Made by a program: the position numbers and the translations under genes. From IMG/VR virus record IMGVR_UViG_2061766007_000680: 33,617 nt of DNA, one strand, 5' to 3'. The notes under the pieces are model-generated. The model did no database searches. It saw nothing but the letters and a program-made list of their open reading frames with translations, and had not been told where the DNA came from. The DNA comes from an uncultured virus (IMG/VR IMGVR_UViG_2061766007_000680). Its lineage: Duplodnaviria > Heunggongvirae > Uroviricota > Caudoviricetes. This document shows, in pieces, positions 3,612 to 28,580 of this stretch (positions within the stretch are counted from its first letter, which is position 1; the number at the start of each line of letters is the position of its first letter).

Positions 3612-3633
3612 TATGTACCCAGATGAGTCTATA
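3612..3633. repeat. 22-bp palindromic motif, copy 1
   Basis: TATGTACCCAGATGAGTCTATA, between convergent terminators. Confidence 0.8.
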
Positions 3634-3668
3634 TATTTTCAATATAGCCAGATATAATATTATGTCAT

Positions 3669-3700
3669 AAAAAAGCACTTGCTCGTGAGAGTAGGTGCTT
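3669..3700 (-). terminator. intrinsic terminator
   Basis: AAGCACTTGCTC-GTGA-GAGTAGGTGCTT stem with adjacent A run (U tail on - strand). Confidence 0.8.
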
Positions 3701-3737
3701 CCAATATAAATTCTAAATTCAAAGTAATGTATTATTA

Positions 3738-4091
3738 TTAGTAATACATAGAGTTAAATTGTTTCTCGACGTAGAAAGGATTCTTGAAGTTATATGTCAT
3801 TTCTATCATCTTTTCGTTTAGTTCCTCGAATGATTCGCCGTCTACTAGTTTAGTCATTGGGCTATCGCTAGATAAGTATATAGCCAATGCTTCCTCGCCA
3901 TCTACTGTAAGTGTATTAGATGAATTAACCCATTCATAAGGTTTGGATGATATACCGAGTTCGAATTCTGTATTGAACGTCATGATGGCATATATTCGTC
4001 TAACTGGACCTGGTTTTTTACTGTAGGAATCCTTCAGTTGATCAGTGAAGAGGTGCTCGAAGGTAAGTTTCTTTTTATTATCCATGGACAT
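3738..4091 (-). CDS. hypothetical protein
   Basis: Track ORF 3738..4124 restarted at MSMDNKKK, next to the upstream stop. Confidence 0.8.
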   Translation of the reverse strand: MSMDNKKKLTFEHLFTDQLKDSYSKKPGPVRRIYAIMTFNTEFELGISSKPYEWVNSSNTLTVDGEEALAIYLSSDSPMTKLVDGESFEELNEKMIEMTYNFKNPFYVEKQFNSMYY

Positions 4092-4287
4092 ATATTTTAA
4101 TGTAGGAAATGATATCGTATACACAGAAGAAAAAGTTGCCTACACAGAAGAAAAAGTTGCCCAATCCAAGGAATAGCATCCATAGATTATGGGTTCCATA
4201 GTCTACCCAATCCATAAAGTATTTTGTTAGGCAGAGCACTGCCGCAATTGCTGCGAGTAGAATAACGAGTATATAAATACCTTGCAT
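4078..4287 (-). CDS. small membrane protein
   Basis: 69 aa, two hydrophobic segments, internal GNFFFCV duplication. Confidence 0.75.
   Translation of the reverse strand: MQGIYILVILLAAIAAVLCLTKYFMDWVDYGTHNLWMLFLGLGNFFFCVGNFFFCVYDIISYIKIYVHG
4120..4161. repeat. perfect 2 x 21-bp tandem duplication
   Basis: TACACAGAAGAAAAAGTTGCC at 4120-4140 and 4141-4161. Confidence 0.95.
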
Positions 4288-4294
4288 AATCTGA

Positions 4295-4450
4295 TTAAAT
4301 AATTAAACAAACAATAAGATCAACAATCGCCATAAATAAATTAATGATGGCCAGGAAAAGTTGTATTTTATTACCAGTTTTCCCATAACCAATTAAGCCG
4401 AAGACTCCTACGAATAGTGCGAATAGTGCTGCACAAAATAATCCTATCAT
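4295..4450 (-). CDS. small two-helix membrane protein (51 aa)
   Basis: MIGLFCAALFALFVGVFGLIGYGKTGNKIQLFLAIINLFMAIVDLIVCLII*. Confidence 0.75.
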   Translation of the reverse strand: MIGLFCAALFALFVGVFGLIGYGKTGNKIQLFLAIINLFMAIVDLIVCLII

Positions 4451-4471
4451 AAATTAAAAATATTAGTTATT

Positions 4472-4590
4472 AAAAAACGGCCCAAGGTGGGGTTGATCCC
4501 CGTAATAAAAATGCTTCTCCCCCGCAACATTATTGTCTTTGGAGACTACTTGAGAATTACTCACCACCTGAGGCCTTAACGAACATGAAA
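4472..4590 (-). ncRNA. candidate structured RNA (multibranch, about 100-120 nt)
   Basis: Own class-I promoter at 4595; closing stem GGCCUCAGGUGG/CCACCUUGGGCC (11/12 pairs) enclosing several hairpins; followed by U6; no ORF. Confidence 0.55.
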
Positions 4591-4669
4591 CAGTACAAAG
4601 ATACTAATTTATTTTGATATATATAAATTTTCGATAAATAAAATTCGTTTTTTTAGTATAGTTGTGATT

Positions 4670-4691
4670 TATATACCCAGATGAGTCTATA
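4670..4691. repeat. 22-bp palindromic motif, copy 2
   Basis: TATATACCCAGATGAGTCTATA, 4 nt past the stop of 4696..5271. Confidence 0.85.
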
Positions 4692-4695
4692 TATT

Positions 4696-5271
4696 TTATT
4701 TAACTGGAATTATAATATTTACTCCTCCGCCAATATTAAAACCTGTTTTATTGGTTAATGCAAAGTCAATATTAAAGCCTATATGTTTACTTATTGGAAG
4801 TATAAAGGTTACCCATCCGCCATACATTACTTTACTATCTTTATTTGATGTAAACCAGGCGTTTTCACGCATATTGATCACATTTGGGTTGTCAATCATC
4901 CATTTACCACATAATACACCAGCGCCTAAATATCTACCTATTAATAGTCCAGCCCTTACATCCCATAATGGAAGGCTATAATTACTTATTGCTACGTTTG
5001 TTCCAGAGGATGTTTCAACGAACTTCTTAGGTATTAGATAGCCATCAAATCCCGCAGTAACACCAAAGATGCCATCAAAATGGTATAGAAGCGAGGCACC
5101 ATACGTAAATGCGTCGTAATTGAAACCATATCCGAAACGTGTTATAACACCCGCATATGTTGATCCCTTATCTTTTGATTCTTGAATCTTCCTGTCAAGG
5201 AAATATTCATCAGAATAAATATTACTTACTGAAGTAATAGTCAGCGCTAATATGATAAAAAGTTTTTTCAT
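4696..5271 (-). CDS. secreted/outer-membrane beta-barrel protein
   Basis: Signal peptide MKKLFIILALTITSVSNIYS; alternating Gly/aromatic amphipathic strands (GVITRFGYGF, GFNIDFAL, FNIGGGVNIII). Confidence 0.75.
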   Translation of the reverse strand: MKKLFIILALTITSVSNIYSDEYFLDRKIQESKDKGSTYAGVITRFGYGFNYDAFTYGASLLYHFDGIFGVTAGFDGYLIPKKFVETSSGTNVAISNYSLPLWDVRAGLLIGRYLGAGVLCGKWMIDNPNVINMRENAWFTSNKDSKVMYGGWVTFILPISKHIGFNIDFALTNKTGFNIGGGVNIIIPVK

Positions 5272-5295
5272 AATGTTAAATTTTTTATATGTTTA

Positions 5296-5889
5296 TTAAT
5301 AAAGTTTATTTACTGATTTAATACTGAAGTCTTCAGGTGAAGCGAAAATGGGCTCCTTGATTAACAGGGTGAGGAACTCTTCATACCCGTTGCAATAGTG
5401 GAATATCTTTTTGTCGAGTGCACTACCCTTTTTAATCCCTAAGTAATTACGTGTGGACAATGCAATTGTTACCACTTCAGTGTCCAATGGTTTCTGGACA
5501 AGGCACTCAGCGTAGTTGTATTTCTGGTCTACCTTAGGCATCTCAGGTTCAGGAACTACCTCCTCGCAATCTTCAAGCTCTAAGATATTCACATGAGTCA
5601 ATTTACGATAGATAGTCAGATATCTGTCCAACGTTTCTAAGAACTTCAGATACGTGCTAGACTCGATTACACTATCTCCACCCCATCCATCATTCCAGAC
5701 TCGTCCTATCCTCGTTATTTCAAGGAAGCCTTGTTCGGTGCTTTGGACATATAATTCGGCATTAAATGGTAGACTATCGTCATGTCTAAATGTTTCTACA
5801 ATTTTCTTAAGCGTAATCTTTAGATCCTTATTAATTTCGCATGTTATAGAGTCTTTCTCTTCAATGTTTTGCTTTTTAGTTCTTGCCAT
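5296..5889 (-). CDS. hypothetical protein
   Basis: 197 aa behind promoter 5913. Confidence 0.85.
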   Translation of the reverse strand: MARTKKQNIEEKDSITCEINKDLKITLKKIVETFRHDDSLPFNAELYVQSTEQGFLEITRIGRVWNDGWGGDSVIESSTYLKFLETLDRYLTIYRKLTHVNILELEDCEEVVPEPEMPKVDQKYNYAECLVQKPLDTEVVTIALSTRNYLGIKKGSALDKKIFHYCNGYEEFLTLLIKEPIFASPEDFSIKSVNKLY

Positions 5890-6032
5890 AGTATCTGAAT
5901 TTCAATTACGTTGCAAAAGTAGTAATTTTATTTTATATATAAAAATTTTAAAGAAAAAAAGTAATTATTTACTCCAAAATTTTTTTAATTCAATTATTTT
6001 CTTTTATTTGGCCATATAGGTGAGTAAATGGT

Positions 6033-6064
6033 AAAAAAAATGCGGGCAGACATTGCCACCCGCA
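6033..6064 (-). terminator. intrinsic terminator (GGCAG-family hairpin)
   Basis: TGCGGGCAGACATTGCCACCCGCA plus A8. Confidence 0.8.
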
Positions 6065-6089
6065 CCCAACTAAACAATTACCACTATGG

Positions 6090-6956
6090 TTACTCCGCCT
6101 TAGAGTAGGCGTTTTTCTTAATGTCGTCGAGGATTTCTGTGATAGTCATATCCTGGTTCAATTGTTCGAGAACCTTTCTAAGGCTAATCTCCGCCTCGAA
6201 CTTACCGTCAGGATTATTATACTGTTCAATATATTTAAACAGTGTACGCAGACCGAACTTGATGTTCTTACTGTCTTTGAAGATAATTGTACGGCTGTCT
6301 ATATCCAGGTTCTTCAGAGAAATCTTATTCGGGTCAGTTCCCTCATCAGACAGTTTCTTCTGAGCCTTAATAATCTCCTTGTATACAACATCCTCATTGT
6401 GATTGTTTGCCTGGAGCATTTTACGTACATCTACAGCGGTGATTACGCCGTCACGTATCAGAGCCTGGAGTTCTGGCTTCAACTCCAGTAACTGCAACCA
6501 GTAGGAAACCATGCCTGGATTTTTACCCAGTTTCCTGGCAATCTCAGATTTAGTTAGACCGCACTGGTCTTGTAACTTACGAGCTAACAGTCCCCACTCA
6601 TATTCATTGAAATTTTTACCCTCGTTACGAAGAGCTTGCTGTATCAATAGTTCCTCTTCTGTACAGCTCTTGGATAGGAACAACGCTGGAATACGCGCAA
6701 TCTCAGAACCCTCCTCAATGAGTTTCATCACAGCCCTGTAACGGCGTTCACCGTCAATCAGACGATACTTTTCCTCACCGTTTTCATCTTTGAATGCCTG
6801 TACAGATACTGGGTTCAGAACGCCCTGCTCTTTAATCTGACGAGCTAGTTCATCCAAGTCGCCGTAGTTACAACGAGAGTTAAAACCTTTTGTTACAACA
6901 ATGTTTCTTGGGTCTATCTTAAAGATATCCGTTTTTGTAGTCTTGTTATTTGCCAT
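6090..6956 (-). CDS. parB: ParB/RepB/Spo0J-family protein (ParB/Srx N-terminal domain plus HTH)
   Basis: LDELARQIKEQGVLNPVSV, YRLIDGERRYRA arginine patch, QALRN, HTH GLTKSEIARKLGKNPGMVSYWLQLL. Confidence 0.9.
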   Translation of the reverse strand: MANNKTTKTDIFKIDPRNIVVTKGFNSRCNYGDLDELARQIKEQGVLNPVSVQAFKDENGEEKYRLIDGERRYRAVMKLIEEGSEIARIPALFLSKSCTEEELLIQQALRNEGKNFNEYEWGLLARKLQDQCGLTKSEIARKLGKNPGMVSYWLQLLELKPELQALIRDGVITAVDVRKMLQANNHNEDVVYKEIIKAQKKLSDEGTDPNKISLKNLDIDSRTIIFKDSKNIKFGLRTLFKYIEQYNNPDGKFEAEISLRKVLEQLNQDMTITEILDDIKKNAYSKAE

Positions 6957-7821
6957 AGTGATTATTTTTATATTTTTTATTTAATTCTTCTTGACGTTGA
7001 TTATTTTTCATCTCATAATATTCTGGATAGTAGAAACCTTTGTGGTCATCTTTATCCTGGAACTGTCCAAAGTTTGAATGTTTGTTCAGGAACTTCACGA
7101 GTTTCATATCCTCAATTGAGTACCATACTGCTTTTGTACTGTCGTCTTCTACGTTCAGATACTCTACACCAGTTTCATAACGAGGCCATCTATTATCTCC
7201 ACAGTTAATTACTGGACGAGCTTTGACATACTTACGGAACCTGAAAGCGATGTATTTAATAATCATCTTATACAGTATTCCTACAATATGTGCCTCCCAG
7301 AAATTTTCTACTGGCTTCTGAATATCATAGTACCAGATTTCTCCAAACAGCCATTTCAGGAAGCCCTGACTGGTTTCTGACAGTCCATACTCTGCGATAC
7401 GACGATTATGTTTCAGGCGTAGAAGAGTGTCCATTTCCCTGAATACTGTGAAATCAACAGAGCAATAACTGTGCTGGTTCTTCTTGGTTACTACCAAAGG
7501 AAGTGTATCTGGTTCCTCGCCGTGTTTTACTGTGGATACATTGGAACGTGACGGCTTGAATTTATCAATCCAGTCAATCTTATCTCCGAAGAACTGTACG
7601 GTATATACTTTCTTTTCCGTGTCTTTAATAATCCACAGTCCGAACTTCCAGTACGGTATTTCTTTTATTTTGAAATGTACAACAGAGTTCTGTCCCAGGT
7701 CGAAAAGGAAATACCCATTACCAACTTGTACATCAGTAACAGTGAATCCATGTTCTTTCAGACACTGAAAGCACGCATCTTTAATTTTAGTCTTAGATAG
7801 TTTTCCTATTTTTAATGGCAT
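6946..7821 (-). CDS. hypothetical protein
   Basis: 291 aa, overlaps the parB start by 11 nt. Confidence 0.85.
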   Translation of the reverse strand: MPLKIGKLSKTKIKDACFQCLKEHGFTVTDVQVGNGYFLFDLGQNSVVHFKIKEIPYWKFGLWIIKDTEKKVYTVQFFGDKIDWIDKFKPSRSNVSTVKHGEEPDTLPLVVTKKNQHSYCSVDFTVFREMDTLLRLKHNRRIAEYGLSETSQGFLKWLFGEIWYYDIQKPVENFWEAHIVGILYKMIIKYIAFRFRKYVKARPVINCGDNRWPRYETGVEYLNVEDDSTKAVWYSIEDMKLVKFLNKHSNFGQFQDKDDHKGFYYPEYYEMKNNQRQEELNKKYKNNHYGK

Positions 7822-7840
7822 AATATTAATTGCTGTTAAT

Positions 7841-7862
7841 TATAGACCCAAATGAGTCTATA
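7841..7862. repeat. 22-bp palindromic motif, copy 3
   Basis: TATAGACCCAAATGAGTCTATA, the most symmetric copy. Confidence 0.9.
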
Positions 7863-7870
7863 TCTTTTTA

Positions 7871-8143
7871 CTATACCCTGATTTTAATAGTTAGTCCTTT
7901 TGCCTCACTATTTTTTGGCTCCACCTTTGGCTTTGGGTTGTTAGTGTCAAAGATTACATTACCGAGTTGGTCAATTACAAATATCTTGTATTGGAAACGA
8001 TTCCGTAACATTGTAATTATATTATTAACCTCATCCTCTTTAAATTGAAAGAGTTTAACACTAGTTGTCGAATAACCAAAATTATCACATGTGCTAACGT
8101 ATCTTGGGTTATCAACCGTTCCTAATCCTACACAATACATCAT
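7871..8143 (-). CDS. hypothetical protein
   Basis: 90 aa behind promoter 8172; ends TAG TAA. Confidence 0.8.
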   Translation of the reverse strand: MMYCVGLGTVDNPRYVSTCDNFGYSTTSVKLFQFKEDEVNNIITMLRNRFQYKIFVIDQLGNVIFDTNNPKPKVEPKNSEAKGLTIKIRV

Positions 8144-8223
8144 AAGTTTAATTCAATTTTTAAATCCGACTGCAAAGATACAAAAAATATTTTAAATGTA
8201 AAAATTTTAGAGAGATAAAATGT

Positions 8224-8260
8224 AAAAAAATTATGCGTGAGGGCTTTTACACCCCCACGC
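8224..8260 (-). terminator. intrinsic terminator
   Basis: GCGTGAGGG...CCCCCACGC stem with nearby A7. Confidence 0.65.
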
Positions 8261-8267
8261 CTTGCGA

Positions 8268-9035
8268 TTACCAACTCATTATGTTGTACACTACCTCTCC
8301 GTCTTTCCAATCTTCGAGGAGTTTCGTGAACTGCGCTTTGCAGTCTGCAATGTCCCCAAAGTAGTAGGCGTTGTAGTCTGTGCTACCGAAGAAGAAGCCT
8401 GCTTGTGTCGGCAGCAACTCTTCCGCCAAGTCTACCAATTCCTGCGGTATGGCAGCGTTCTCCTTATCTACACGCTCACGCTCTTTTTGCTGCTCCTCTT
8501 GCGTGAGGTCATAGAAATTGCTCTTGCAGTAGTACTTATCGTATGGACGACCGCTCTCGTCAAGTACACCTGCCTCCTTAGCAGCAGCCTCGATTTGCGT
8601 GCAGATATCTACCAATTCCTGCACCTTATCTTTGCTCACGATGCAGCACTCGTCTACGAGGTCATCAGCGAAGAAGCGATAGACGAAGTTAACCTTACGG
8701 AAGTATACATCGCTCTGCTTGTACATACTCTTTTTTAGGCGTTGGATTTCGTCCAATATGTCGCAGTTGAATGTCTCAGGTACGAGTTTTTCCCAATACC
8801 ATTTGTAATCAGGCATAAGGCTCTTCACGTACTCCCTGAGTTCGTTGATTACTGCTGCACGCTCCTCTGCGTTCTCGTCAGCAATTGCCTGCTTGATACG
8901 CTTAGCAAACTTGTTAGCCACTTTCGTGAATGCTTTCTTGAATTGCATTTCACGGTCTTTTTCCAACTCATCTACTGAGTTTGGATTTACACCTTTACTA
9001 GGTTTTACCTTGTCGAAGTAAATATCTAAGCCGAT
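8268..9035 (-). CDS. conserved phage hypothetical protein (MGLD.../GFFFGS family), probable ATC start
   Basis: Frame continues upstream of the track start to ATC-GGC-TTA-GAT-ATT-TAC-TTC (xGLDIYF); motifs FRKVN, LLPTQAGFFFGSTDY, terminal SW. Confidence 0.8.
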   Translation of the reverse strand: MGLDIYFDKVKPSKGVNPNSVDELEKDREMQFKKAFTKVANKFAKRIKQAIADENAEERAAVINELREYVKSLMPDYKWYWEKLVPETFNCDILDEIQRLKKSMYKQSDVYFRKVNFVYRFFADDLVDECCIVSKDKVQELVDICTQIEAAAKEAGVLDESGRPYDKYYCKSNFYDLTQEEQQKERERVDKENAAIPQELVDLAEELLPTQAGFFFGSTDYNAYYFGDIADCKAQFTKLLEDWKDGEVVYNIMSW

Positions 9036-9181
9036 AATTGTATCACGTTGTTTTCAACGTGCCTCCGTTTTTAATAGTTAATAAATATGTTATTTTGAAT
9101 TACAATGCAAAATTAATACAATTTTTTGATATATACAAATTTTTGGGCATTTTTTTTATTTTTTTCCTTATTATTATATAT

Positions 9182-9203
9182 TATAGACCCAAACGAGTAC
9201 CTA
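9182..9203. repeat. 22-bp palindromic motif, copy 4
   Basis: TATAGACCCAAACGAGTACCTA, 1 nt past the stop of 9205..9876. Confidence 0.8.
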
Positions 9204-9204
9204 A

Positions 9205-9876
9205 TTAGTGGTTAGGTTCGTTCTCCCATTTATCAATCAGGCTGTCCCAATCTGTCAGGTTAAATTCGTCATCTCGATAACAGGTGTTGCCTAAGAAGCC
9301 AAACAGGTTCTTCTCGAACACAGCGTCATCAATGTCTGTATCGTCGCCGTCCTGTTCGATACGGAACTTTGCTGCTTCAACGAATTTCTTTGCGAGGAAA
9401 TAGTCCAACTCCTCCTCAATATCCATTTCATTGAGATAGCTATCTACACCCTGCCAATCTACAATCTCCAATGCTGCATCTGTAATGTGGTCGATGAACT
9501 CATAATATAAGTCCAGCATTGCCTGGCTGTTCAAAATTACTTTTGTGCCGAAGCAGCCGAACTCATAGTTTTCAATATGACCTTTTACACAACTGCGTGC
9601 GCTGTCCCACGTTTCTACATATCCCCAATCAATCATTTTAGAGATAGTGTCTATAGTGATAATCAAATTTCCCTCCTTGTCTTTGATGAGTGTTTTGTCC
9701 TCACCAAGAAGGAAATTATTACCAAACGCACTCTCTGTAATATAACAGATACCTTTACGTTCCTTTATGGCTTTTTCGCTTTTATAGCAATAGCCATTGT
9801 TGGTAGAACCTGCCGAGAATACTGCTCCGCCCTCTATCGGGGTGCGAGAACCAACTTCGTAATACTTCTCGTCCAT
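9205..9876 (-). CDS. hypothetical acidic protein
   Basis: 223-aa ORF. Confidence 0.85.
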   Translation of the reverse strand: MDEKYYEVGSRTPIEGGAVFSAGSTNNGYCYKSEKAIKERKGICYITESAFGNNFLLGEDKTLIKDKEGNLIITIDTISKMIDWGYVETWDSARSCVKGHIENYEFGCFGTKVILNSQAMLDLYYEFIDHITDAALEIVDWQGVDSYLNEMDIEEELDYFLAKKFVEAAKFRIEQDGDDTDIDDAVFEKNLFGFLGNTCYRDDEFNLTDWDSLIDKWENEPNH

Positions 9877-10207: not shown

Positions 10208-10364
10208 ATAGTTAGTTGTTTTTGAATTACGTTGCAAAGATAGTAAAAAAAAACCATACATACAAATTTTAGGGCAAAAAAATGTAAATTATTTTTAGTG
10301 AGTGATATATAGTCAAATAAAATAAAATTTATGGTTTATACAAATTTTGAGGAAATAAAAACAC

Positions 10365-10397
10365 AAAAAAACACGAGCAGCATTTCTGCCACCCGTG
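10365..10397 (-). terminator. intrinsic terminator (GGCAGAAATGC family)
   Basis: CACGAGCAGCATTTCTGCCACCCGTG plus A7. Confidence 0.8.
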
Positions 10398-10427
10398 CCA
10401 ACTAAACTATAAACTATGAACAAAACC

Positions 10428-10653: not shown

Positions 10654-10654
10654 A

Positions 10655-10955: not shown

Positions 10956-11672
10956 CTATAAATTATCTATATATAAAAATTTTGGGGGAATAAAATGGCG
11001 GGTNNNNNNNNNNNNNNNNNNNNNNNNNNNNNNNNNNNNNNNNNNNNTTTCGTTTAATGTTTCATTAAGAAAATGGTCAAAGTTATCTTTGTATTTTTCC
11101 GATTTGTGTTTTGTTTCATTTATGATATTATTGAAACTACTGCAACTTTCATTGAAATAGTCATAAGGAATACTAAACTTATTATTTTTGTCAATAATAG
11201 TGTAAAAGTCAGTATCATCTTTCTTATTTTCGTAATAGTCTTTTCTTTCGATAAAAGCATAATCATTTTGATTAAATTCATAATAGTCAAAATGTACCAC
11301 ACCATTGTCTTTTATACCATAAATAAAACTTTCTTGTTGAAAAAGTTTAGCAATATGTTTTACCTCATCAAGCAAGATATTAAATATAATCTTACTATTT
11401 TCGGTATTTCCATATTTTCCTCTTACTGGTTGCCAAGCATAATTACCTTGTTTAAGATAATTAACAAGATTTTTGTTAGCAGTACGATTTTGGTTATTGC
11501 TACCCATTTCACCCATTGGGTTTTCACCTGTAATAATGCAAAATGTCTTTACATTATCTTCAACCCCCCTTATACTATTGATAGCACTTTGCTTTAATTG
11601 TCCTTTTTTGTTGCGAGAAATCTCGTCAAGTCTATTCATTAAATCTAATCCTTTCTCTAATTGTTCGTTCAT
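10956..11672 (-). CDS. DUF3293-like phage protein; true C-terminus hidden by N gap
   Basis: Motifs FCIITGENPMG, VRGKYGNTENS, IAKLFQQESFIYG. Confidence 0.7.
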   Translation of the reverse strand: MNEQLEKGLDLMNRLDEISRNKKGQLKQSAINSIRGVEDNVKTFCIITGENPMGEMGSNNQNRTANKNLVNYLKQGNYAWQPVRGKYGNTENSKIIFNILLDEVKHIAKLFQQESFIYGIKDNGVVHFDYYEFNQNDYAFIERKDYYENKKDDTDFYTIIDKNNKFSIPYDYFNESCSSFNNIINETKHKSEKYKDNFDHFLNETLNEXXXXXXXXXXXXXXXTRHFIPPKFLYIDNL

Positions 11673-11836
11673 AATCTTATTTAGTTTTTAATATATAAAT
11701 ACTTGAAAACTTTGTGCAAAGATAAAAGTTTTTCTACAAATATACAAATTTTAGGGAAAAAATCATTCATCATACTCGAAAATTTTTATATTCCGATTTT
11801 TTTCTTTTATTTGTGCATATAGAGATGAGGAGGACG

Positions 11837-11867
11837 AAAAAAAACAGGCGGCATCTCTGCCACCTGT
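11837..11867 (-). terminator. intrinsic terminator (GGCAGAGATGC family)
   Basis: ACAGGCGGCATCTCTGCCACCTGT plus A run. Confidence 0.85.
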
Positions 11868-11886
11868 CCCAACTAAAAACCAACTA

Positions 11887-12087
11887 TTATGAAACCAAGT
11901 CCAACTCTACAAGTCTGTTAAAGACCATATCGTAGAACTTTTCGATATATTCTTGGTCGTCAATGTCTTCATTGTTGAAGATATTTTCCAACTGCTCTTT
12001 ATCATCTTCGGTAAGGCACTCACCATACTTTGCGTCAACCTCAATCGGGTCAAGTTCGTAAAAATCTTGTTTACTAATCTTTTTCAT
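11887..12087 (-). CDS. small acidic hypothetical protein
   Basis: Restarted at MKKISKQDF (66 aa). Confidence 0.75.
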   Translation of the reverse strand: MKKISKQDFYELDPIEVDAKYGECLTEDDKEQLENIFNNEDIDDQEYIEKFYDMVFNRLVELDLVS

Positions 12088-12265
12088 TGTCGTAATAATT
12101 TGGTTCAACCTCTAAAATTTCTGCGGTTTTCCATACACACCGCGTAGGATAATTGTGGTTTCTCGCCCACCTCTCCGCTTGTCCTCTGGTGTCAAAGATT
12201 GCGTTTTTAATGGCTTCCATTTCTTTTGGATAGAAGACATTTACATATATTCCCCACTTTTTCAT
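12074..12265 (-). CDS. small hypothetical protein
   Basis: 63 aa. Confidence 0.75.
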   Translation of the reverse strand: MKKWGIYVNVFYPKEMEAIKNAIFDTRGQAERWARNHNYPTRCVWKTAEILEVEPNYYDNEKD

Positions 12266-14742: not shown

Positions 14743-14888
14743 ATAATTAGTTGTTTTAGTTTTACTGCACAAAAGTACTACAATTATTTGGCTTATACAA
14801 ATTTTGGAGATAAAAAACAATTTATTTCCTTAAAATTTTTATATACCAGATTTTTTCTTTTATTTGTCTATATAGAACCGAATTGTAT

Positions 14889-14921
14889 AAAAAAATACGG
14901 GCAGCATTTCTGCCACCCGCA
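14889..14921 (-). terminator. intrinsic terminator (GGCAGAAATGC family)
   Basis: TACGGGCAGCATTTCTGCCACCCGCA plus A7. Confidence 0.85.
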
Positions 14922-14941
14922 CCAAAACACATTACTAACCA

Positions 14942-16210: not shown

Positions 16211-16318
16211 AATAAGATAATTTTTAATTGTTATACATTGTTGCCGACAATGGTTCTTTCAATTACACTGCAAAGATACTGCTTTTGTTTTGAATATACA
16301 AATTTTGGAGAAAAAATT

Positions 16319-16660
16319 TTAAATAAAAAAACCACCAAACATTTGTACATATCTACCACAACAGGAGTTCAAGAATTCGTTTAACTCTGCATTCTCTTTC
16401 ATTTCTTGGATAGCAGCGCGGCGGTCTTCTTCGGACATATCCATAAATTCCATAAGCCGTCTGTTCCAATCTTCGAGTTGTTTGATTTTCTCCTTTAACT
16501 CTATATTCTCTTTTCCGAGTCTGCAACGTTCTCTGTCTGCTTCTGCATATTTCTCCCAATACTGAGATTTTAACTTTTTCAAGTTTTCTATCTCGTCATT
16601 GTGTTGCTTTGCTAATTGCCGTCGCAATTCCTCGCGTATTTGATTAGGCGTCTTTTTCAT
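16319..16660 (-). CDS. coiled-coil hypothetical protein
   Basis: 113 aa, E/K/R-rich heptads; ATGA overlap. Confidence 0.85.
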   Translation of the reverse strand: MKKTPNQIREELRRQLAKQHNDEIENLKKLKSQYWEKYAEADRERCRLGKENIELKEKIKQLEDWNRRLMEFMDMSEEDRRAAIQEMKENAELNEFLNSCCGRYVQMFGGFFI

Positions 16661-17535: not shown

Positions 17536-17700
17536 TTATTGTTTTTCGTAATAAGAGCCGTCTTCGATACTATCTACCCAATTCTTTTCGATGAAATATG
17601 CGGCGTCATCGGTTGGCGTTGCTACCATTTCAAAGTCTTCAAACTCTTCGTACTTTTGGCACTCTGGGAAAGGTACGTAGTAATACTCATAGTATTTCAT
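17536..17700 (-). CDS. small hypothetical protein (54 aa)
   Basis: MKYYEYYYVPFPECQKYEEFEDFEMVATPTDDAAYFIEKNWVDSIEDGSYYEKQ*. Confidence 0.75.
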   Translation of the reverse strand: MKYYEYYYVPFPECQKYEEFEDFEMVATPTDDAAYFIEKNWVDSIEDGSYYEKQ

Positions 17701-17719: not shown

Positions 17720-17741
17720 TATGTACTCAATCGGGTCTATT
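17720..17741. repeat. 22-bp palindromic motif, copy 5
   Basis: TATGTACTCAATCGGGTCTATT, overlaps the stop of 17740..18072. Confidence 0.7.
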
Positions 17742-18072
17742 ATTCCTCATACTCACCGAGAAGATAGTCGAGAATATCTGCGTAAGGTACATCACACTCA
17801 TTACCCAAATCAATGTTCTCTCGGTCTTTACCGATATAGTATGCGTGCAGATTTACTTTTACTAACGTTCCGTCAAGCCAAATTTTGGAAATGTAAGCGT
17901 CAGTAAGGTCATCATCAAATGCGCTACTGGCGATACTCGGCGCGTTGCCATTATCCCAATCGAACTCAACAGGGTGTCCGATTTTTAACAGGGCTTCTCT
18001 TACCGCGTTTTTCAATTGACTGTCAATGTTGTAAGACAAGTCAATGAGTTTTTTCATTTCTTCTTTTGTCAT
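17740..18072 (-). CDS. hypothetical protein
   Basis: Restarted at MTKEEMKK behind promoter 18099. Confidence 0.85.
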   Translation of the reverse strand: MTKEEMKKLIDLSYNIDSQLKNAVREALLKIGHPVEFDWDNGNAPSIASSAFDDDLTDAYISKIWLDGTLVKVNLHAYYIGKDRENIDLGNECDVPYADILDYLLGEYEE

Positions 18073-18153
18073 AGTTGTATTTGTTTTTGAATTACGTTGC
18101 AAAATTACAACAATTTATTGGTTTATACAAATTTTGGGGAAATAAAATGTAAT

Positions 18154-18175
18154 TATATACTCGTTTGAGTCTATT
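18154..18175. repeat. 22-bp palindromic motif, copy 6
   Basis: TATATACTCGTTTGAGTCTATT, overlaps the stop of 18174..18434. Confidence 0.8.
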
Positions 18176-18434
18176 AACTTACTTTACCCTCGACCTCGTT
18201 TACAAAGTTTCCAAAGTCATCGAGATATGCGCCGTCATCGTCATACACCTCAATGCTGCCAATGCTATCCACACAAAATCCATAGTCATCACTCAATACA
18301 TTTGATATGTCCATGTCGTCAGCAATAATTTTTGCCTGCTGCGGTGTGTCGCATTCTACGATAAACTCTGTTGGTAACTCAGGGACATTATGTCCGTCAG
18401 TATCCCATTTAATGTCTTTGAAAATAACTTGCAT
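18174..18434 (-). CDS. conserved small acidic phage protein (IKWDTD...LSDDYGFC type)
   Basis: 86 aa. Confidence 0.85.
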   Translation of the reverse strand: MQVIFKDIKWDTDGHNVPELPTEFIVECDTPQQAKIIADDMDISNVLSDDYGFCVDSIGSIEVYDDDGAYLDDFGNFVNEVEGKVS

Positions 18435-18914: not shown

Positions 18915-18946
18915 AAAAAATGCTGGCTGCATTTCTGCAACCAGCA
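18915..18946 (-). terminator. intrinsic terminator (GCAGAAATGC family)
   Basis: TGCTGGCTGCATTTCTGCAACCAGCA plus A6. Confidence 0.85.
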
Positions 18947-18967
18947 CCCACTAAACACTATGAAAAC

Positions 18968-21884: not shown

Positions 21885-21906
21885 TATATACTCATTTGTG
21901 TCTATT
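21885..21906. repeat. 22-bp palindromic motif, copy 7
   Basis: TATATACTCATTTGTGTCTATT, overlaps the stop of 21905..22657. Confidence 0.75.
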
Positions 21907-22657
21907 ATTTTAAACACGCAGTAATATATTGCTTAAACTCTTCCATATCAAAATCCCCACTCCACTCTCCACGCAAAGGTTCGCGATATGATATTTGATT
22001 TATTCCAAATCTATTTTTACCGAACGTAATACTTTTCTCACAATGCCAATCTACTACACCAAATACATTTGCATAGTATTCAATACAAAGTGCGGTATAA
22101 GGTTTGCTTAAATTATCACAAGTACGTTTGCCTACTGCTAATCTTGCACGCATTTTGTGTCCATACTTATCTCTTTTGCCTTCAAGTATTTCATTTGCAA
22201 TCTTCTCGCATTGTTGCTGCAATTCTTCTACTGATATTTCTTGCTTACCCCTTTCGTATTTTGCACCAACCTCTTTCAGTTTCTTTGCGTGCCACTCTTT
22301 AACATATTCTACAACCGCAGCGCGTTGCTTGTCAGTCAAATCGTGTTGCTCATCTGCGTGAAACGTTTTGTTGCCACTACACCAATCGTGTCCGTCTTTT
22401 TCGTATAATTTTTTATCTTTATAATCACGTGTGCAGATTGTAAGAAAAAAATTAAATTGTCCTTTACTCCACTCGTTACCACTTACATACCAATATATGC
22501 TATGTACACCACAATACTCACCTACACTATAACCAAATGCAGGGTTGAGTTTCTTTAAGCCGTTCTCTTTATCTAAATAGGAAATATAACCGCAAGAAAC
22601 TAACTCTCTTGTAAGTTCAATTTGAGATAAATCTTTTTTTAATTGTTCGTAGTTCAT
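21905..22657 (-). CDS. hypothetical protein
   Basis: Restarted at MNYEQLKK (250 aa) behind promoter 22683. Confidence 0.85.
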   Translation of the reverse strand: MNYEQLKKDLSQIELTRELVSCGYISYLDKENGLKKLNPAFGYSVGEYCGVHSIYWYVSGNEWSKGQFNFFLTICTRDYKDKKLYEKDGHDWCSGNKTFHADEQHDLTDKQRAAVVEYVKEWHAKKLKEVGAKYERGKQEISVEELQQQCEKIANEILEGKRDKYGHKMRARLAVGKRTCDNLSKPYTALCIEYYANVFGVVDWHCEKSITFGKNRFGINQISYREPLRGEWSGDFDMEEFKQYITACLK

Positions 22658-22802
22658 AGTAGTTTTTGTTTTAATTTCTACTGCAAAGATACAATAAATT
22701 ATCTGCATATAAAAATTTTAGAGAAAAAAATGCAATCACTCTCCAAAATTTGTATATATGGGGAAAATTATTTTATTTGTTCATATAGGTAGAGAAAGGC
22801 AG

Positions 22803-24428: not shown

Positions 24429-24430
24429 AA

Positions 24431-24685
24431 TTACTCAATAAATAATGAATTGTTACTATCTATTTCAGTTGTTTGAATTGAAAGCATTTCACCATAATCA
24501 CGCAAAACTTTTGGTTTCCCTTTTAGAGTAAGCAGTTCATTAATAAATGGCTTTACTTTTTCTTTCTCAACTTTTGGGTAAAGTTCAAAAATACGTTTTT
24601 CAAGTTTTGATTGACTACTATACACACCAAGTATATTTTTTGTGTGTAAGTGGTGTTGTACCAAAATAAAGATTTTTTTGCTCAT
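24431..24685 (-). CDS. hypothetical protein
   Basis: Restarted at MSKKIFIL behind promoter 24704. Confidence 0.8.
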   Translation of the reverse strand: MSKKIFILVQHHLHTKNILGVYSSQSKLEKRIFELYPKVEKEKVKPFINELLTLKGKPKVLRDYGEMLSIQTTEIDSNNSLFIE

Positions 24686-24856
24686 AGTTTTTTTAATTCT
24701 ACCGCAAAGATACAATAAATTATTTAGATATATAAATTTTGGGGAATAATTCATTTAAAAAAAAGTAATCAACATACCATTATTCATTTGAAAAAGTGTA
24801 GGTGCATATATATAGACAAATAAAAGAAAAAAAATGAATTATACAAATTTTAAAGC

Positions 24857-24890
24857 AAAAAAAATGCAGATAGCATTTCTGCTACCTGCA
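24857..24890 (-). terminator. intrinsic terminator (GCAGAAATGC family)
   Basis: TGCAGATAGCATTTCTGCTACCTGCA plus A8. Confidence 0.85.
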
Positions 24891-24917
24891 CCCACTAAAC
24901 ACTATACACTATGAACA

Positions 24918-25496
24918 CTATACGCTCTGCGACCCTTGCAGTCTTTCGGTTGCGATAATATCTTCCTCTCTACCCTCTTTGAAATTGGGGATTAGTTCGG
25001 CATAACCGATTGGTATTTCACTCTCAACGGAAATCATATCTCTTGCCCAAGAGCCGATAAGTCGCATATTGCTACCCTCATAATCTCCGCCACCTCTGCC
25101 GTTACCCTCTGCGGTCAAAAGCGGTAGCGGGTCTATGCGAAGACCAAAAGTATCTTTTTCAATTTTGGAATAGTCCACATACAATTTTTTGCTGTGGTTT
25201 GCCAAATAGCGCATTTTGGTTAATGTCGGCTTGCCTACTTTTTTGCTTTTCGGGTTTACCTCGTCCGTCAAATCGTATAGGTTTCCGTCTTTACCTTTCT
25301 CATTGTCGGCATAATCACCAGCCCACACTATCTGCGTAGGGGTTGAGAGGATAAGTTTTTTAATGTAACTTACAAAGGGATTTCCAATATAGGAATGTTC
25401 CATAAGTTTCGCTCCATTGTCAAAGTCCCAAGAGCGATAAGACTGCCAATTTTTGGTGCCTTTTTGTCTTAATGTTGGTTTGTAATACTGACCCAT
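24918..25496 (-). CDS. conserved phage hypothetical protein (MGQYY...WAGDY...GRGGGDY family)
   Basis: MGQYY, KLMEHSY, WAGDY, PLPLLT, GNGRGGGDY, GSWARD motifs. Confidence 0.9.
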   Translation of the reverse strand: MGQYYKPTLRQKGTKNWQSYRSWDFDNGAKLMEHSYIGNPFVSYIKKLILSTPTQIVWAGDYADNEKGKDGNLYDLTDEVNPKSKKVGKPTLTKMRYLANHSKKLYVDYSKIEKDTFGLRIDPLPLLTAEGNGRGGGDYEGSNMRLIGSWARDMISVESEIPIGYAELIPNFKEGREEDIIATERLQGSQSV

Positions 25497-25581
25497 AATT
25501 TTATTTGCTTTTAGTTGTTAGTAATCTACTGCAAAGGTACAACAAAAAATTGATTTATACAAATTTTAAGGAATAAAAATG

Positions 25582-25797
25582 TTATTTATCCTTATTTTTT
25601 ATATCTTCTACCAGTTTTTTTATGTCATCCAGTTTATCATTTCTTTCATCATTTTGAAGAATAATAACAAGAGAAATACTCCAAGCGGCATTAAAAAACC
25701 ACATTAATGATTCCCAACTTCTGCCATTTGAAATGTCAATTACAGCAACCAGTGCAAAAACAAATGACAACGCAATGTTAATCCAATAATACTTCAT
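25582..25797 (-). CDS. small two-helix membrane protein
   Basis: 71 aa, two hydrophobic segments and a charged tail. Confidence 0.8.
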   Translation of the reverse strand: MKYYWINIALSFVFALVAVIDISNGRSWESLMWFFNAAWSISLVIILQNDERNDKLDDIKKLVEDIKNKDK

Positions 25798-25813
25798 ATA
25801 TTTTATATTAACT

Positions 25814-26218
25814 TTAATAATCGTTCATAATATGCATATAAGATGCAATGTTATTAACTGCCATATCCTTCACTTCAATAAAATGAATATGGTAATCGGC
25901 AATCTTCTTGTCCCTTATATTATAGTTGAACGTGTGTTCAATAGCCTCAACAGTACTTCCTGCTTTTCCAATCCAATATCCTGGTCGCATCGTGCAAACA
26001 TATACAATGTTGCCAACTACAAATATATCCGTAAAAGGTAATGCTGCAAGCCCCTCATTGTTCTTTACAAGGTAAGAAGCAATATCAGTCATGATATTTG
26101 TTGTGCTATACTCATTGCGTACAAATTCAGCAAGCCATCTTGCAAACAAAACACATTTTCTATTTTTACGAGGATTATTTAATAGTTTGTGTACGAATTT
26201 TTCGATAAGTCTTTTCAT
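25814..26218 (-). CDS. protein with an S3-like type-II KH RNA-binding motif
   Basis: VCTMRPGYWIGKAGSTVEAI matches the RPGxxIGKxG signature of ribosomal protein S3 KH domains. Confidence 0.7.
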   Translation of the reverse strand: MKRLIEKFVHKLLNNPRKNRKCVLFARWLAEFVRNEYSTTNIMTDIASYLVKNNEGLAALPFTDIFVVGNIVYVCTMRPGYWIGKAGSTVEAIEHTFNYNIRDKKIADYHIHFIEVKDMAVNNIASYMHIMNDY

Positions 26219-26305
26219 TGTTTTTAAATTTTAATTCTGGCACAAAGGTAATACAATTTTCTCACATATACAAATTTTAGAGAAAAAAAACACAATAATT
26301 TTAAC

Positions 26306-26476
26306 TTATATACCCATTTGAGTATATTTATGTTTTTTCTTTCTTGTATATTTCTTTTTATTGCGATAAACATTGCTATGGCATATCGGCTTACCAAATA
26401 AGGCAATCTCTATCTCCCTACTTTGTTTCCTTGCCGCTTTCAGTACTGCCAATATGTCATTTGCTTTACTACTCAT
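26306..26476 (-). CDS. small basic protein (56 aa) with an ArfA-like C-terminus
   Basis: MSNKANDILAVLKAARKQSREIEIALFGKPICHSNVYRNKKKYTRKKKHKYTQMGI*; start overlaps the upstream stop. Confidence 0.7.
   Translation of the reverse strand: MSSKANDILAVLKAARKQSREIEIALFGKPICHSNVYRNKKKYTRKKKHKYTQMGI
26307..26328. repeat. 22-bp palindromic motif, copy 8
   Basis: TATATACCCATTTGAGTATATT, forms the last codons and stop of 26306..26476. Confidence 0.8.
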
Positions 26477-26663
26477 CTTCGTATTCTATAATCTCGTATT
26501 TTCCCCACCTCAACTTTTTGCTTTGTGGCGTGTATTCTTTTTCGAGATTTAGTTGATGATTAAGTGATTTTAACCTTTCCTCAGCCTCTTTTTTATCGCG
26601 GTAAATCTCGCAGTAATTACAAACAAGAGGTGGGTTGCTATATACTATTTTATACTTTTTCAT
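26469..26663 (-). CDS. small hypothetical protein
   Basis: 64 aa, TAATG coupling to the upstream gene. Confidence 0.8.
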   Translation of the reverse strand: MKKYKIVYSNPPLVCNYCEIYRDKKEAEERLKSLNHQLNLEKEYTPQSKKLRWGKYEIIEYEDE

Positions 26664-26926
26664 TACTTAATCGGTTTAAGAGTAATACAATCCACATGTT
26701 TGTCATCGGCATACGTTACCACCTCATACGGCTTGCGCTTGAACATAACGTATTGACAATAAAAACGTGGGTAACTATCTAACGTATCGCCTTTCGTGGA
26801 AACTACCTTTTCCGCTTCTCCGTCAGTTACTAACAACTTGCCATAAGGCATTGTGTGGCGGTTTCCGAAATATGGAATAGTCCAAGACAATACTTTTTTA
26901 ATTCGAACTTTGTTGTTTTCGCTCAT
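26663..26926 (-). CDS. hypothetical protein
   Basis: 87 aa. Confidence 0.8.
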   Translation of the reverse strand: MSENNKVRIKKVLSWTIPYFGNRHTMPYGKLLVTDGEAEKVVSTKGDTLDSYPRFYCQYVMFKRKPYEVVTYADDKHVDCITLKPIK

Positions 26927-26940
26927 AGTTGTTTGTGTTT

Positions 26941-27162
26941 TTAATTATATTCTTTTGGTATGTAAATGTTCCATTTTGCAATGTATCTTTCGATAAAATC
27001 TTTTGGAAATTGACTTTCCCAACCACAACACGGACAAATAAATTGTTTCGTTCTGCGACCAAAGTATGTGCGGGGCATTTCCTTACAATTAGGATTACCG
27101 CAATAAGGCACATACCCTTGCTCATCCATAAGTTTTTGTCTCATCCAAGTTGTCTCTTCCAT
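26941..27162 (-). CDS. small zinc-ribbon protein
   Basis: PYCGNPNC...FICPCCGW. Confidence 0.85.
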   Translation of the reverse strand: MEETTWMRQKLMDEQGYVPYCGNPNCKEMPRTYFGRRTKQFICPCCGWESQFPKDFIERYIAKWNIYIPKEYN

Positions 27163-27308
27163 TGTGCTATTGTTTTAACTTCTACGGCAAAAGTACTACA
27201 TTTATTTGAAATATACAAATTTTAGAGAAAAAAAGTGTAATCCATCCCTAAAATTTTTATATATGGAAAATTAGTTTATATTTGGCTATATAGATGCGAA
27301 AAGGCAAC

Positions 27309-27346
27309 AAAAAACGGCAATATCTTTATTTATTGCCGCATTTTTG
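27309..27346. terminator. intrinsic terminator, possibly bidirectional
   Basis: A6-CGGCAATA...TATTGCCG-CA-T6. Confidence 0.75.
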
Positions 27347-27350
27347 ATTT

Positions 27351-27863
27351 TTACTCTCCTACCTCATCTACATCGGTATCTCCGTCTTCGGTCAAGTTAG
27401 ACAAGATTTGTTTCGTACACTCATCGCTCATTATCTCACTTTCTGCGAGTTCCAATGCCTCGTCTTCGTCCTCTGCCTCTACGCTCACCACTACTTGCGT
27501 GTGATAGTAAAAAGTCACATCGTACTTTTTCTTTTTCTTCTCCTTTGGTGCAAGAGGTTTCGGCTTTACAATCTTTCCGTGTTTCATACACACATCGGAA
27601 AAGCCGCAAGACATGTGCGGTAAGTCAAAAATACCACGATACTGCAAACATTGCTCTTTGTCATACACCGACAAGTCTGCTAACTTTGGGTAGGTGAGTT
27701 CCAATCTCATCGGCGAGTTTGGAAAGTTCTCCAGTTCCTCACAAGTCGGTGTTGCTACTGCGTGACCGTCTTCACAAGTGACTGTGTAACTGTGTTCCTC
27801 ATTATCACCGAATATCTTTTTGTCGGTGAGCAGCATTTCTTCTACAATTTTCTTTTTTGCCAT
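27351..27863 (-). CDS. hypothetical protein with a C-terminal DpnD/PcfM-like segment
   Basis: KKYDVTFYYHTQVVVSVEAEDEDEALELAE. Confidence 0.8.
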   Translation of the reverse strand: MAKKKIVEEMLLTDKKIFGDNEEHSYTVTCEDGHAVATPTCEELENFPNSPMRLELTYPKLADLSVYDKEQCLQYRGIFDLPHMSCGFSDVCMKHGKIVKPKPLAPKEKKKKKYDVTFYYHTQVVVSVEAEDEDEALELAESEIMSDECTKQILSNLTEDGDTDVDEVGE

Positions 27864-27889
27864 AGTGTTATAGTGTTTATGTATTTTGA

Positions 27890-28132
27890 TTAGTAATATA
27901 GTTTCTCATCAATCTGCTGCAAGATATTTTCCTTATCATCTAAAATGTTGCAGTCAATCTCACATACATATTGGTCAAAGTTATCACCAATATACACCTC
28001 ACAAAAATGCTCTTGTGTGGAATAGTTGAAACCTCCAACCAATTTTACCTCTCCAAAAGAGGTGTTGATAATGCGGTGTTTCGGTTTTCTACCACATATA
28101 TCTTTAATCATTTCTTCTCTTGTTTGTGCCAT
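27890..28132 (-). CDS. hypothetical protein
   Basis: Restarted at MAQTREE behind promoter 28153. Confidence 0.8.
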   Translation of the reverse strand: MAQTREEMIKDICGRKPKHRIINTSFGEVKLVGGFNYSTQEHFCEVYIGDNFDQYVCEIDCNILDDKENILQQIDEKLYY

Positions 28133-28273
28133 AGTTTTATTTGATTTGTACTGCAAAAGTACTACATTTTTCCCAATTATACAAATTTTGGAGAAAAAAA
28201 ATGCAATTACAACCTAAAATTTTTATATCTCACGGAATATGTTATATTTGGCTATATACTACACAAAAGGCAC

Positions 28274-28301
28274 AAAAAAAATAGCCGAACTTAATCGGCT
28301 A
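28274..28301 (-). terminator. intrinsic terminator
   Basis: TAGCCGA-ACTTAA-TCGGCTA plus A8; same inner stem-loop as 22810. Confidence 0.8.
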
Positions 28302-28305
28302 CCTT

Positions 28306-28536
28306 TTAGTAAATCATTTGCTTAACCAATCGGTTGGCAATCTTGTATGCTGCGTGCAGTTTCTCCGTTCCTGTCAATCCTCGTAATTCTTCTGCGTGAA
28401 TTACAAAGTTGTCAATCTCATACTGCAAATTCTCATCTTCGTATATTTGGCAGAAATACCCACCTTTGTTTATTCCGTTGTCATCGCAGAAAGATACATA
28501 TACTTTCTTGCGGTCATTTATTTTTACTGATAGCAT
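28306..28536 (-). CDS. hypothetical protein
   Basis: 76 aa, NKGGYFCQIY. Confidence 0.8.
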   Translation of the reverse strand: MLSVKINDRKKVYVSFCDDNGINKGGYFCQIYEDENLQYEIDNFVIHAEELRGLTGTEKLHAAYKIANRLVKQMIY

Positions 28537-28558
28537 ATTATTCCTTTCTTTAATAATT

Positions 28559-28580
28559 TATATACCCATTTGAGGCTATA
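28559..28580. repeat. 22-bp palindromic motif, copy 9
   Basis: TATATACCCATTTGAGGCTATA, 2 nt past the stop of 28583..29128. Confidence 0.8.

Follow-up and report, generated by a model that had tools for sequence, protein, structure and literature searches.

The 33,617-nt DNA of an uncultured tailed virus (Caudoviricetes; IMG/VR record IMGVR_UViG_2061766007_000680), called here the window over its whole length, carries a 22-bp inverted-repeat-like motif dispersed among its genes, together with a gene for an orphan ParB/Noc-type protein (6090..6956, minus strand). An earlier note on this DNA had described nine copies of a palindrome, TATAKACYCA-NN-TGRGTMTATA. Searching with this IUPAC pattern and allowing up to three mismatches, we recovered all nine copies, at 3612, 4670, 7841, 9182, 17720, 18154, 21885, 26307 and 28559, whereas 100 dinucleotide-preserving shuffles gave a mean of 0.03 matches and a maximum of 1. 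The motif is therefore far more frequent than in shuffled DNA, a comparison of the kind that the note had proposed. Two copies, at 4670 and 7841, match the pattern exactly, against an expectation of 0.00. With a weight matrix derived from the motif copies themselves, the nine score 21.7–29.6 bits and the runner-up in gene orientation scores 10.5 bits. A possible degenerate tenth copy (7105..7126, plus strand; 16.6 bits) lies within gene 6946-7821, in the orientation opposite to that of the nine. The surrounding genes are on the minus strand from 3738 onward, and in their sense the motif reads WATAGACTCA-NN-TGRGTAYATA.

The window has a G+C content of 35%, nearly all of its genes are ORFans, and a megablast search against 50,697 phage records returned no close phage relative; its DNA occurs in bovine gut metagenome runs, and the 16 runs listed include no RNA run that contains this phage. 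A repeat of 55-75 nt, present in about 27-33 copies, precedes nearly every minus-strand gene (4589-33241; for example 16257-16330). In gene sense it consists of TTTG, a spacer of ~20 nt, TAnnTTTG and an A-rich leader ending ...ACAACTATG, without a Shine-Dalgarno sequence. It fits the Bacteroidota type of promoter and leader, for which the accessible portion of PMC7366714 gives the consensus TTTG/TAnnTTTG, and we refer to it below as the host-type promoter. The 22-bp motif stands at only about 9 of roughly 70 gene junctions. Two masked N runs in the window (11004-11047 and 33311-33320) could conceal features.

All nine copies are on the minus strand, in the sense of the genes around them. Counting only upstream minus-strand frames of at least 45 codons, seven of the nine overlap a stop codon or lie within 0-8 nt of one. 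The copy at 4670..4691 begins 4 nt past the stop of gene 4696-5271 and a host-type promoter has its -33 TTTA 42 nt downstream. That at 7841..7862 begins 8 nt past the stop of a conserved 90-aa gene and 19 nt ahead of the ATG of the unit formed by 6946-7821 and parB. At 9182..9203 the motif follows the stop of gene 9205-9876 by 1 nt, with a promoter 42 nt downstream, and its outer arms appear swapped relative to the remaining copies; at 28559..28580 it follows the stop of gene 28583-29185 by 2 nt, and the next ATG is 22 nt downstream. At three sites the TAA stop borrows the first two bases of the motif: 17720..17741 (gene 17740-18102; next ATG 19 nt downstream), 18154..18175 (gene 18174-18434; -33 box 22 nt downstream) and 21885..21906 (gene 21905-22708; -33 box 21 nt downstream). 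The copy at 26307..26328 has no clear upstream gene, and the -33 box of a promoter lies 32 nt downstream of it. The earlier count of eight copies at stop codons holds for the seven above, but it reaches eight only if a doubtful 56-aa frame (26306-26476) that reads through the copy at 26307 is accepted. The ninth, at 3612..3633, stands at the end of the co-directional gene block with convergent terminators on either side, as the note had said: a plus-strand terminator (3576-3592) and, on the minus strand, a weak terminator-like hairpin with a T-run that was seen by eye and that the terminator scan did not list.

The same motif is present in at least six related gut jumbo-type phage contigs. We detected eight copies, all on the gene strand, at 7106-30264 of a 121-kb IMG/VR contig (G001; estimated 32% complete), whose ParB is 80% identical to that of the window and which is syntenic with the window over positions 1-9462. 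Another eight, again on the gene strand, lie at 206659-227877 of a 242-kb relative (G002; 68% complete), and eight more on one strand at 483-26292 of contig C21 in the metagenome-assembled genome (MAG) G003. Additional copies occur in L020, L021, L022, L023 and L017, which are metagenome contigs with ParB relatives, L023 being part of a contig of 348 kb. One more relative, L041, is a 41.6-kb contig in G003, a MAG from horse faeces. The clusters stay within a block of 21-26 kb that contains parB and consists of small genes with promoters of the Bacteroidota type, and the distance from parB to the downstream end of the cluster is always 2.5-5 kb. Thus, the co-occurrence of motif and parB that the note had suggested looking for among relatives was found, with the motif clustering around parB in the window, G001, G002 and G003. 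Outside the clusters, nothing in the rest of G001 (~90 kb) scores above 12.1 bits, the rest of G002 (~220 kb) has a single weak three-mismatch match at 175259, and the rest of G003 (~1.96 Mb) has 0 copies. We considered and set aside a site for a host-wide transcription factor: within the 2-Mb MAG G003, which may not be the host, only contig C21 carries the motif.

Conservation is focused on the motif. Over six syntenic pairs of sites in the window and G001, 92 of 132 motif positions are identical, compared with 47-61 of 132 in ungapped 22-nt flanks. The copies at 3612, 4670, 7841, 9182 and 17720 are syntenic with G001 30264, 29323, 25730, 23097 and 13515, respectively, and that at 7841 also with L021 1931; gene 28583-29185 and its motif recur together elsewhere in G001, at 17553. 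In IMG/VR, the exact window pattern retrieved only three unrelated single perfect palindromes (L002-L004). A scan with the core pattern retrieved 38 loci, 36 of them single matches that mostly fall inside one conserved gene of another phage group, and G001 and G002 were the only true multi-copy carriers. Fifteen phage loci with a sister-clade ParB have 0 motif copies and no other gene in common with the window. We conclude that the motif is a genuine cis element, conserved and specific to its lineage. The window and its relatives represent a lineage of large gut phages that uses host-type promoters for an early-looking block of small genes.

Altogether we placed 42 copies by our own reading of their sequence contexts; these copies are not independent, since L022 and L023, and likewise L021 and the window, are closely related. 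Nineteen follow a stop codon (or a tRNA) and precede, at 5-34 nt and without an intervening promoter, the next start or tRNA. In eleven the -33 box of a host-type promoter follows 15-42 nt downstream, and four start 4-15 nt past the -7 box of a promoter, about the transcription start. Six are beside terminators or at the end of the block, and two are ambiguous. The upstream stop overlaps the motif in 14 of the 42 copies, and in 26 it overlaps or lies no more than 12 nt upstream. Three of the four promoter-proximal copies sit at the promoter of the parB unit (G002 223488, L022 9784 and L023 9785). Indeed, a motif copy is found ahead of the parB unit in all seven loci with readable upstream sequence, while the genes between the two vary: a 291-aa frame in the window, G001 and L021, a 57-aa frame in L022 and L023, the 90-aa gene in G002, and nothing in L020, where the copy follows a tRNA-His.

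We then asked what kind of signal these copies represent. Across 32 aligned copies, C9, G14, G16 and T17 are invariant and A6, C7 and T13 nearly so. Hairpin pairing is found in 73.8% of cells. Shuffling of the partners gives 71.7%, with 34 of 500 shuffles equalling or exceeding the real alignment, and at the outer positions 8-19 of 31 rows do not pair. Hence covariation between the arms, which the note had expected to see in relatives, did not materialize. RNA folding of the nine window copies gave 0 to -10.2 kcal/mol, with three of nine beating shuffles (z below -3.5) and two forming no hairpin. Mirror-symmetric conservation of sequence without conservation of structure points to a site in duplex DNA that is recognised by a protein of two-fold symmetry. 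Moreover, the copies within a genome have changed in concert, as expected for sites that track a trans-acting factor: G15 is present in six of nine window copies and in none of eight in G001, and CC at positions 19-20 in seven of eight G001 copies and none of nine in the window.

The motif is also directional. Positions 5/18 are G/T in 23 of the 42 copies and reversed in one, positions 10/13 show the same kind of asymmetry in 27 copies against one reversed, and all 42 copies face the same way relative to the transcription of the genes. The arms are thus consistently unequal, and "palindrome" is better replaced by directional pseudo-palindrome. The motif does not behave as an intrinsic terminator: scans list none of the nine window copies, six of nine folds are no better than shuffles, and a T-run follows none of the nine, in agreement with the note, which had set the copies apart from terminators because they are AT-rich and have no consistent U tail. 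Nor does it have the make-up of a sigma-70-family promoter, since the 22 bp contain neither a TTTG/TAnnTTTG pair nor a -35/-10 pair. For a repetitive extragenic palindromic (REP) element with its REP-associated tyrosine transposase (RAYT), the hairpins are weak and no transposase domain was found among the scanned window frames; RAYT was not searched for in G001 and G002.

The ParB/Noc-type protein (288 aa) is the sole recognisable DNA binder among the window frames scanned (73 + 3 more). It has a ParB_N domain with a GERRYRA box, the cytidine triphosphate (CTP) box, a helix-turn-helix (HTH) domain of the HTH_ParB family and a weak KorB match. Its nearest solved relatives are Noc (3e-19) and ParB/Spo0J (to 1e-14), with KorB more distant (4.5e-8). 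The ParBs of motif-bearing loci form a single clade with a support of 100/100. We detected no ParA-type ATPase (AAA_31, CbiA) in G001 (121 kb) or G002 (242 kb, 68% complete), with controls detected in 14 of 14 genomes, and none among 76 window frames scanned against Pfam; all of these records are fragments. A partition role would therefore be one without a motor in the 363 kb seen. Next to parB in seven loci is the conserved 90-aa gene (7871..8143, minus strand, in the window), which accompanies parB also in L021, L001, L024, L022, L023 and L020, its position relative to motif and promoter differing by lineage. The model of its product (predicted local distance difference test score, pLDDT, 75.6) has a predicted beta-beta-beta-alpha-beta-beta fold.

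On this evidence, we propose, with a probability of roughly 40%, that the motif is where a phage DNA-binding dimer docks to control the early block, as at an operator, a roadblock or a loading site. A protein encoded by the phage and of approximate two-fold symmetry would bind the motif as double-stranded DNA at about 8-9 sites spaced roughly 3 kb apart through the block of early genes. Where a site lies on or just past the start region of a promoter, the bound protein would act as at an operator; between cistrons, ahead of the next promoter or behind terminators, it would act as an orientation-dependent roadblock or use the site for loading. We infer binding, the identity of the binder and the effect on transcription from sequence comparison. 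ParB is the leading candidate for the binder, a tentative assignment to which we give somewhat worse than even odds. If ParB does bind, CTP clamps loaded at the sites may spread across the block and autoregulate parB. The earlier note had likewise suggested a site for a dimeric protein with ParB as the obvious candidate, and this is still the best reading in view of the CTP box, the HTH and the clustering of sites around parB.

A more far-reaching version, which we consider unlikely, is that an orphan Noc/ParB-type CTP clamp serves as a temporal silencer or insulator of the entire early block in this gut jumbo phage lineage. The clamp would load at 8-9 directional sites ~3 kb apart, the sites doubling as stop codons and gene-boundary markers, and clamp roadblocks, dependent on orientation, would shut off early transcription or keep it unit by unit. 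Such an arrangement would be the phage counterpart of KorB silencing without ParA or partition.

Several observations weigh against a dimer operator in general or against ParB as its ligand. The strict asymmetry and orientation of the motif go unexplained by a symmetric dimer alone, and its tight fit to stop codons suits a signal read by transcription or translation as well as it suits genome compaction. The distances from motif to downstream promoter (57.5-84.5 nt) give no sign of helical phasing (Rayleigh p about 0.14-0.2, n = 10). On the ParB tree, presence of the motif amounts to a single change and cannot be told apart from phage lineage. The window and G001 have the same ParB recognition helix but different motifs, with changes at positions 5 (G in seven of nine window copies, T in seven of eight in G001), 15, 19 and 20; conversely, the helix is strongly different in L022/L023 and the core of the motif is unchanged. 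Thus, change in the motif does not track the ParB recognition helix, and the ParB part of the earlier proposal is weakened to that extent. Finally, the 90-aa protein has no match to a solved fold at E <= 0.001 and showed no DNA-binding fold.

The fixed orientation makes it natural to ask whether the motif is instead a co-transcriptional signal read on one strand, in nascent RNA or non-template DNA. It could be a site at which an endoribonuclease or RNA-binding protein processes or inactivates early polycistronic transcripts, releasing tRNAs, or it could be a pause or recruitment site for an elongation factor; T4 RegB and RfaH/ops offer analogies. All 42 copies being in gene sense, the 19 copies between a stop (or tRNA) and a start or tRNA 5-34 nt away, three copies 1-9 nt past a tRNA 3' end and four at transcript 5' ends would suit such a signal, as would the window-specific A15-to-G change, which keeps U-G pairing on the sense strand only. 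A 134-aa protein encoded just downstream of the copy at 26307 (25814-26218, minus strand) also has a weak match to the RNA-binding KH_2 domain (E = 3.4e-4, under the Pfam cut-off). Nevertheless, we regard a one-strand signal as unlikely: pairing does not exceed what column composition gives, the hairpins of six of nine window copies are no better than shuffles and two do not form, four or five copies combine G8 with A15 in a mismatch, and mirror-symmetric conservation without structure would be unexpected. Furthermore, five copies are behind terminators or at the block end, where little transcript is expected, while a sixth (G002 206659) precedes a terminator. Less probable still is a true centromere, a parS array through which ParB would segregate a phage genome that persists, in the manner of a plasmid, as an episome during a carrier or pseudolysogenic state. 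Here ParB is of the canonical chromosomal type with a CTP box, phage N15 provides a precedent for dispersed centromere sites, and the clustering of sites around parB in four genomes bears out part of the array that the note had envisaged. However, we found no ParA-type ATPase in the window, G001 or G002 and no integrase or other temperate marker, and a centromere needs neither strict orientation nor promoter-linked placement.

Similarly, the 19 copies that stand 5-34 nt ahead of a start codon or tRNA, with no host-type promoter between, might be taken as promoters or parts of promoters for a phage-directed transcription class, recognised for example by a phage sigma factor. Orientation is fixed, as a promoter requires, and G002 encodes 3-4 sigma-70-family proteins (205791-206663; also 17845, 7915 and 131787), the stop codon of one of these genes falling inside its first motif copy; neither the window nor G001 showed a sigma gene. 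We judge this very improbable, because 22 bp is too short for two sigma-70-type boxes at normal spacing (our inference), the copies that close the block (3612 and its G001 counterpart) face antisense DNA, and four copies are directly downstream of a complete host-type promoter. Scans for sigma-70-type promoters were also unremarkable at the sites, and no RNA polymerase beta subunit and no T7-like RNA polymerase were found in G001 or G002, the latter by a search without a positive control. The reading to which we give least credence is the second one in the earlier note, a cassette-end recombination or mobility site (attC-, REP- or PeSL-like; PeSL, promoter early stem-loop) for gain, loss and shuffling of genes. 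Outside the neighbourhood of parB, the window and G001 differ strongly in gene order, T4-type phages shuffle genes via repeated promoter/stem-loop cassettes according to the accessible part of PMC4122927, and at 28559, 17720 and 9182 the motif stays with the upstream gene while the downstream gene changes, in line with the joint movement of the two that the note had suggested checking. In L020, however, the copy stays with parB rather than with the 90-aa gene, and six sites are positionally conserved between the window and G001. Sequence rather than structure is conserved, the hairpins are mostly weak and the genes have promoters of their own. The search for a recombinase yielded no tyrosine or serine recombinase in 363 kb (G001 and G002) or in 102 window frames, and no recombinase or Y1-transposase domain among the scanned window frames. 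The promoter repeat (75 nt, ~33 copies) is a far larger target for homologous exchange, and contigs of related populations in four DNA runs break there and not at the motif, with no convincing joint at the motif. Apparent joints 4576/7838 and 7868/4696 were rejected, being explained by one motif copy aligning better to another. With no recombinase found and a larger repeat as the more obvious shuffling substrate, a role in recombination is unlikely, and the attC-like interpretation is not upheld.

Among known systems, the arrangement works most like the OB sites of KorB and the stoperators of L5-type phages, and it is a member of neither. On plasmid RK2, KorB is a CTP clamp with a small partner protein, and OB sites precede promoters at distances of either 4-10 bp or 45 bp to more than 1 kb (PMC11790492, in its accessible portion). 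The likeness to OB, so far as that portion describes it, lies in multiple dispersed palindromic sites, in a protein of the ParB-CTPase fold (here ParB, as candidate), in sites near or at a distance upstream of promoters, and in a site at the protein's own operon. Here, four copies start past a -7 box and 11 lie before a -33 box, and the parB unit has its own site. OB sites serve in silencing rather than, or besides, partition, which is the likeness that we propose for the motif, and the 90-aa neighbour could by analogy play a KorA-like part. In contrast to OB, the sites belong to a phage, are 22-bp directional pseudo-palindromes and lie in many cases between cistrons or behind terminators; the window ParB is nearer Noc/Spo0J, and its 90-aa neighbour shows no HTH fold.

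The L5-type repressor sites of cluster A mycobacteriophages lie in promoters and short intergenic spaces with an orientation tied to transcription, as far as PMC9283540 could be consulted. They resemble the motif in being many and dispersed, in abutting gene ends within such spaces, and in strictly following the direction of transcription, as do all 42 copies here. According to the same portion of that paper, stoperators are 13-bp, fully asymmetric sites for a two-domain monomer, spread over the whole genome of temperate phages, whereas our motif is a 22-bp pseudo-palindrome confined to one 21-26 kb block. We found no repressor-like domain in the window frames and no integrase in G001 or G002 that would indicate a stoperator-type immunity system. 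In the accessible literature on stoperators and on ParB/parS of jumbo phages, no description of such sites turned up.

With parS and the Noc-binding sites (NBS) of chromosomal ParB and Noc, the motif shares the form of palindromic sites for the HTH dimer of a CTP-dependent clamp, spread around the gene; as in ParABS systems, a ParB with a CTPase N-domain and an HTH is encoded on the same element. It differs in that no ParA was found and that the site is directional and tied to gene boundaries. To our knowledge, its sequence is unrelated to parS and NBS. P1 C1 operators and REP elements are further analogies. Integron attC sites resemble the motif in their position at gene 3' ends and in their imperfect inverted-repeat form; they keep structure and not sequence, need IntI and flank promoterless cassettes, and none of these three features is found here. 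As with the PeSL cassettes of T4-type phages (PMC4122927; see also PMC2839356), the motif belongs to a hyperplastic early region of many small ORFan genes, shuffled in order and each flanked by a repeated regulatory sequence. The PeSL analogue here is the 75-nt promoter repeat and not the 22-bp motif, which mostly forms no stable stem-loop.

If the sites are docking points for ParB or another repressor, a protein of the ParB-CTPase fold would take part in transcription control of a whole block in a virulent-looking jumbo phage, and the theme of KorB, VirB and Noc would extend to phages of gut Bacteroidota. The 22-mer and the 288-aa protein would then form a cis/trans pair from an uncultured lineage that lends itself to direct testing. 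Alongside mycobacteriophage stoperators, the fixed orientation provides another, independent case in which to study how RNA polymerase is blocked in an orientation-dependent manner. Together, motif and promoter repeat provide a metagenome signature for this phage lineage and its early region.

Some features of the relatives deserve mention in their own right. G001 also encodes Hsp70, RtcB, a PIF1 helicase, a primase and a Dam methylase. Clusters of tRNA genes lie just downstream of parB in L022 and L023, and in L023 ARAGORN predicts a tRNA with anticodon CTA (12062-12138; reported as tRNA-Pyl), possibly an amber suppressor in this 348-kb relative. In the motif-less ParB clade (L025-L040), simple k-mer scans gave no clear recurrent palindrome across the clade. 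One of its members, L026, an unrelated phage with a sister-clade ParB, has a recurrent AGCTTAAGCT-type palindrome (for example at 1823, 1910, 16565 and 18387), and two others, L037 and L038, likewise unrelated phages, have a tandem iteron-like array upstream of parB (6420-6700); these could be the own ParB sites of those phages. We also compared the window with the early promoters of crAss-like phages and discarded the comparison, since the accessible part of the phi14:2 preprint (10.1101/2020.03.07.982082) describes no comparable motif and the window shows no crAss relationship.

The window contains further repeats. A family of G+C-rich intrinsic terminators, nearly identical in sequence (GG..GGTGGCAGAAATGC..), recurs on the minus strand at 6038-6067, 10370-10399, 11841-11870, 14894-14923, 18918-18949 and 24862-24893. 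A second element, called class II in the note (..TTTTATTTGTCTATATA), is on the plus strand at 5979-6018, 11782-11821, 14835-14874, 22748-22787 and 31825-31864, with further positions at 10308, 18867, 24811 and 29827, and adjoins terminators in both orientations. It looks like a variant host-type promoter and possibly drives short opposite-strand frames or antisense RNA. The earlier note had seen a likeness between one arm of the motif and the tail of this element; TCTATA is indeed common to both, but the likeness goes no further and does not reach the invariant core. Lastly, a 50-nt duplication with 100% identity (31071-31120 and 33568-33617) comprises a gene start and part of the promoter repeat.

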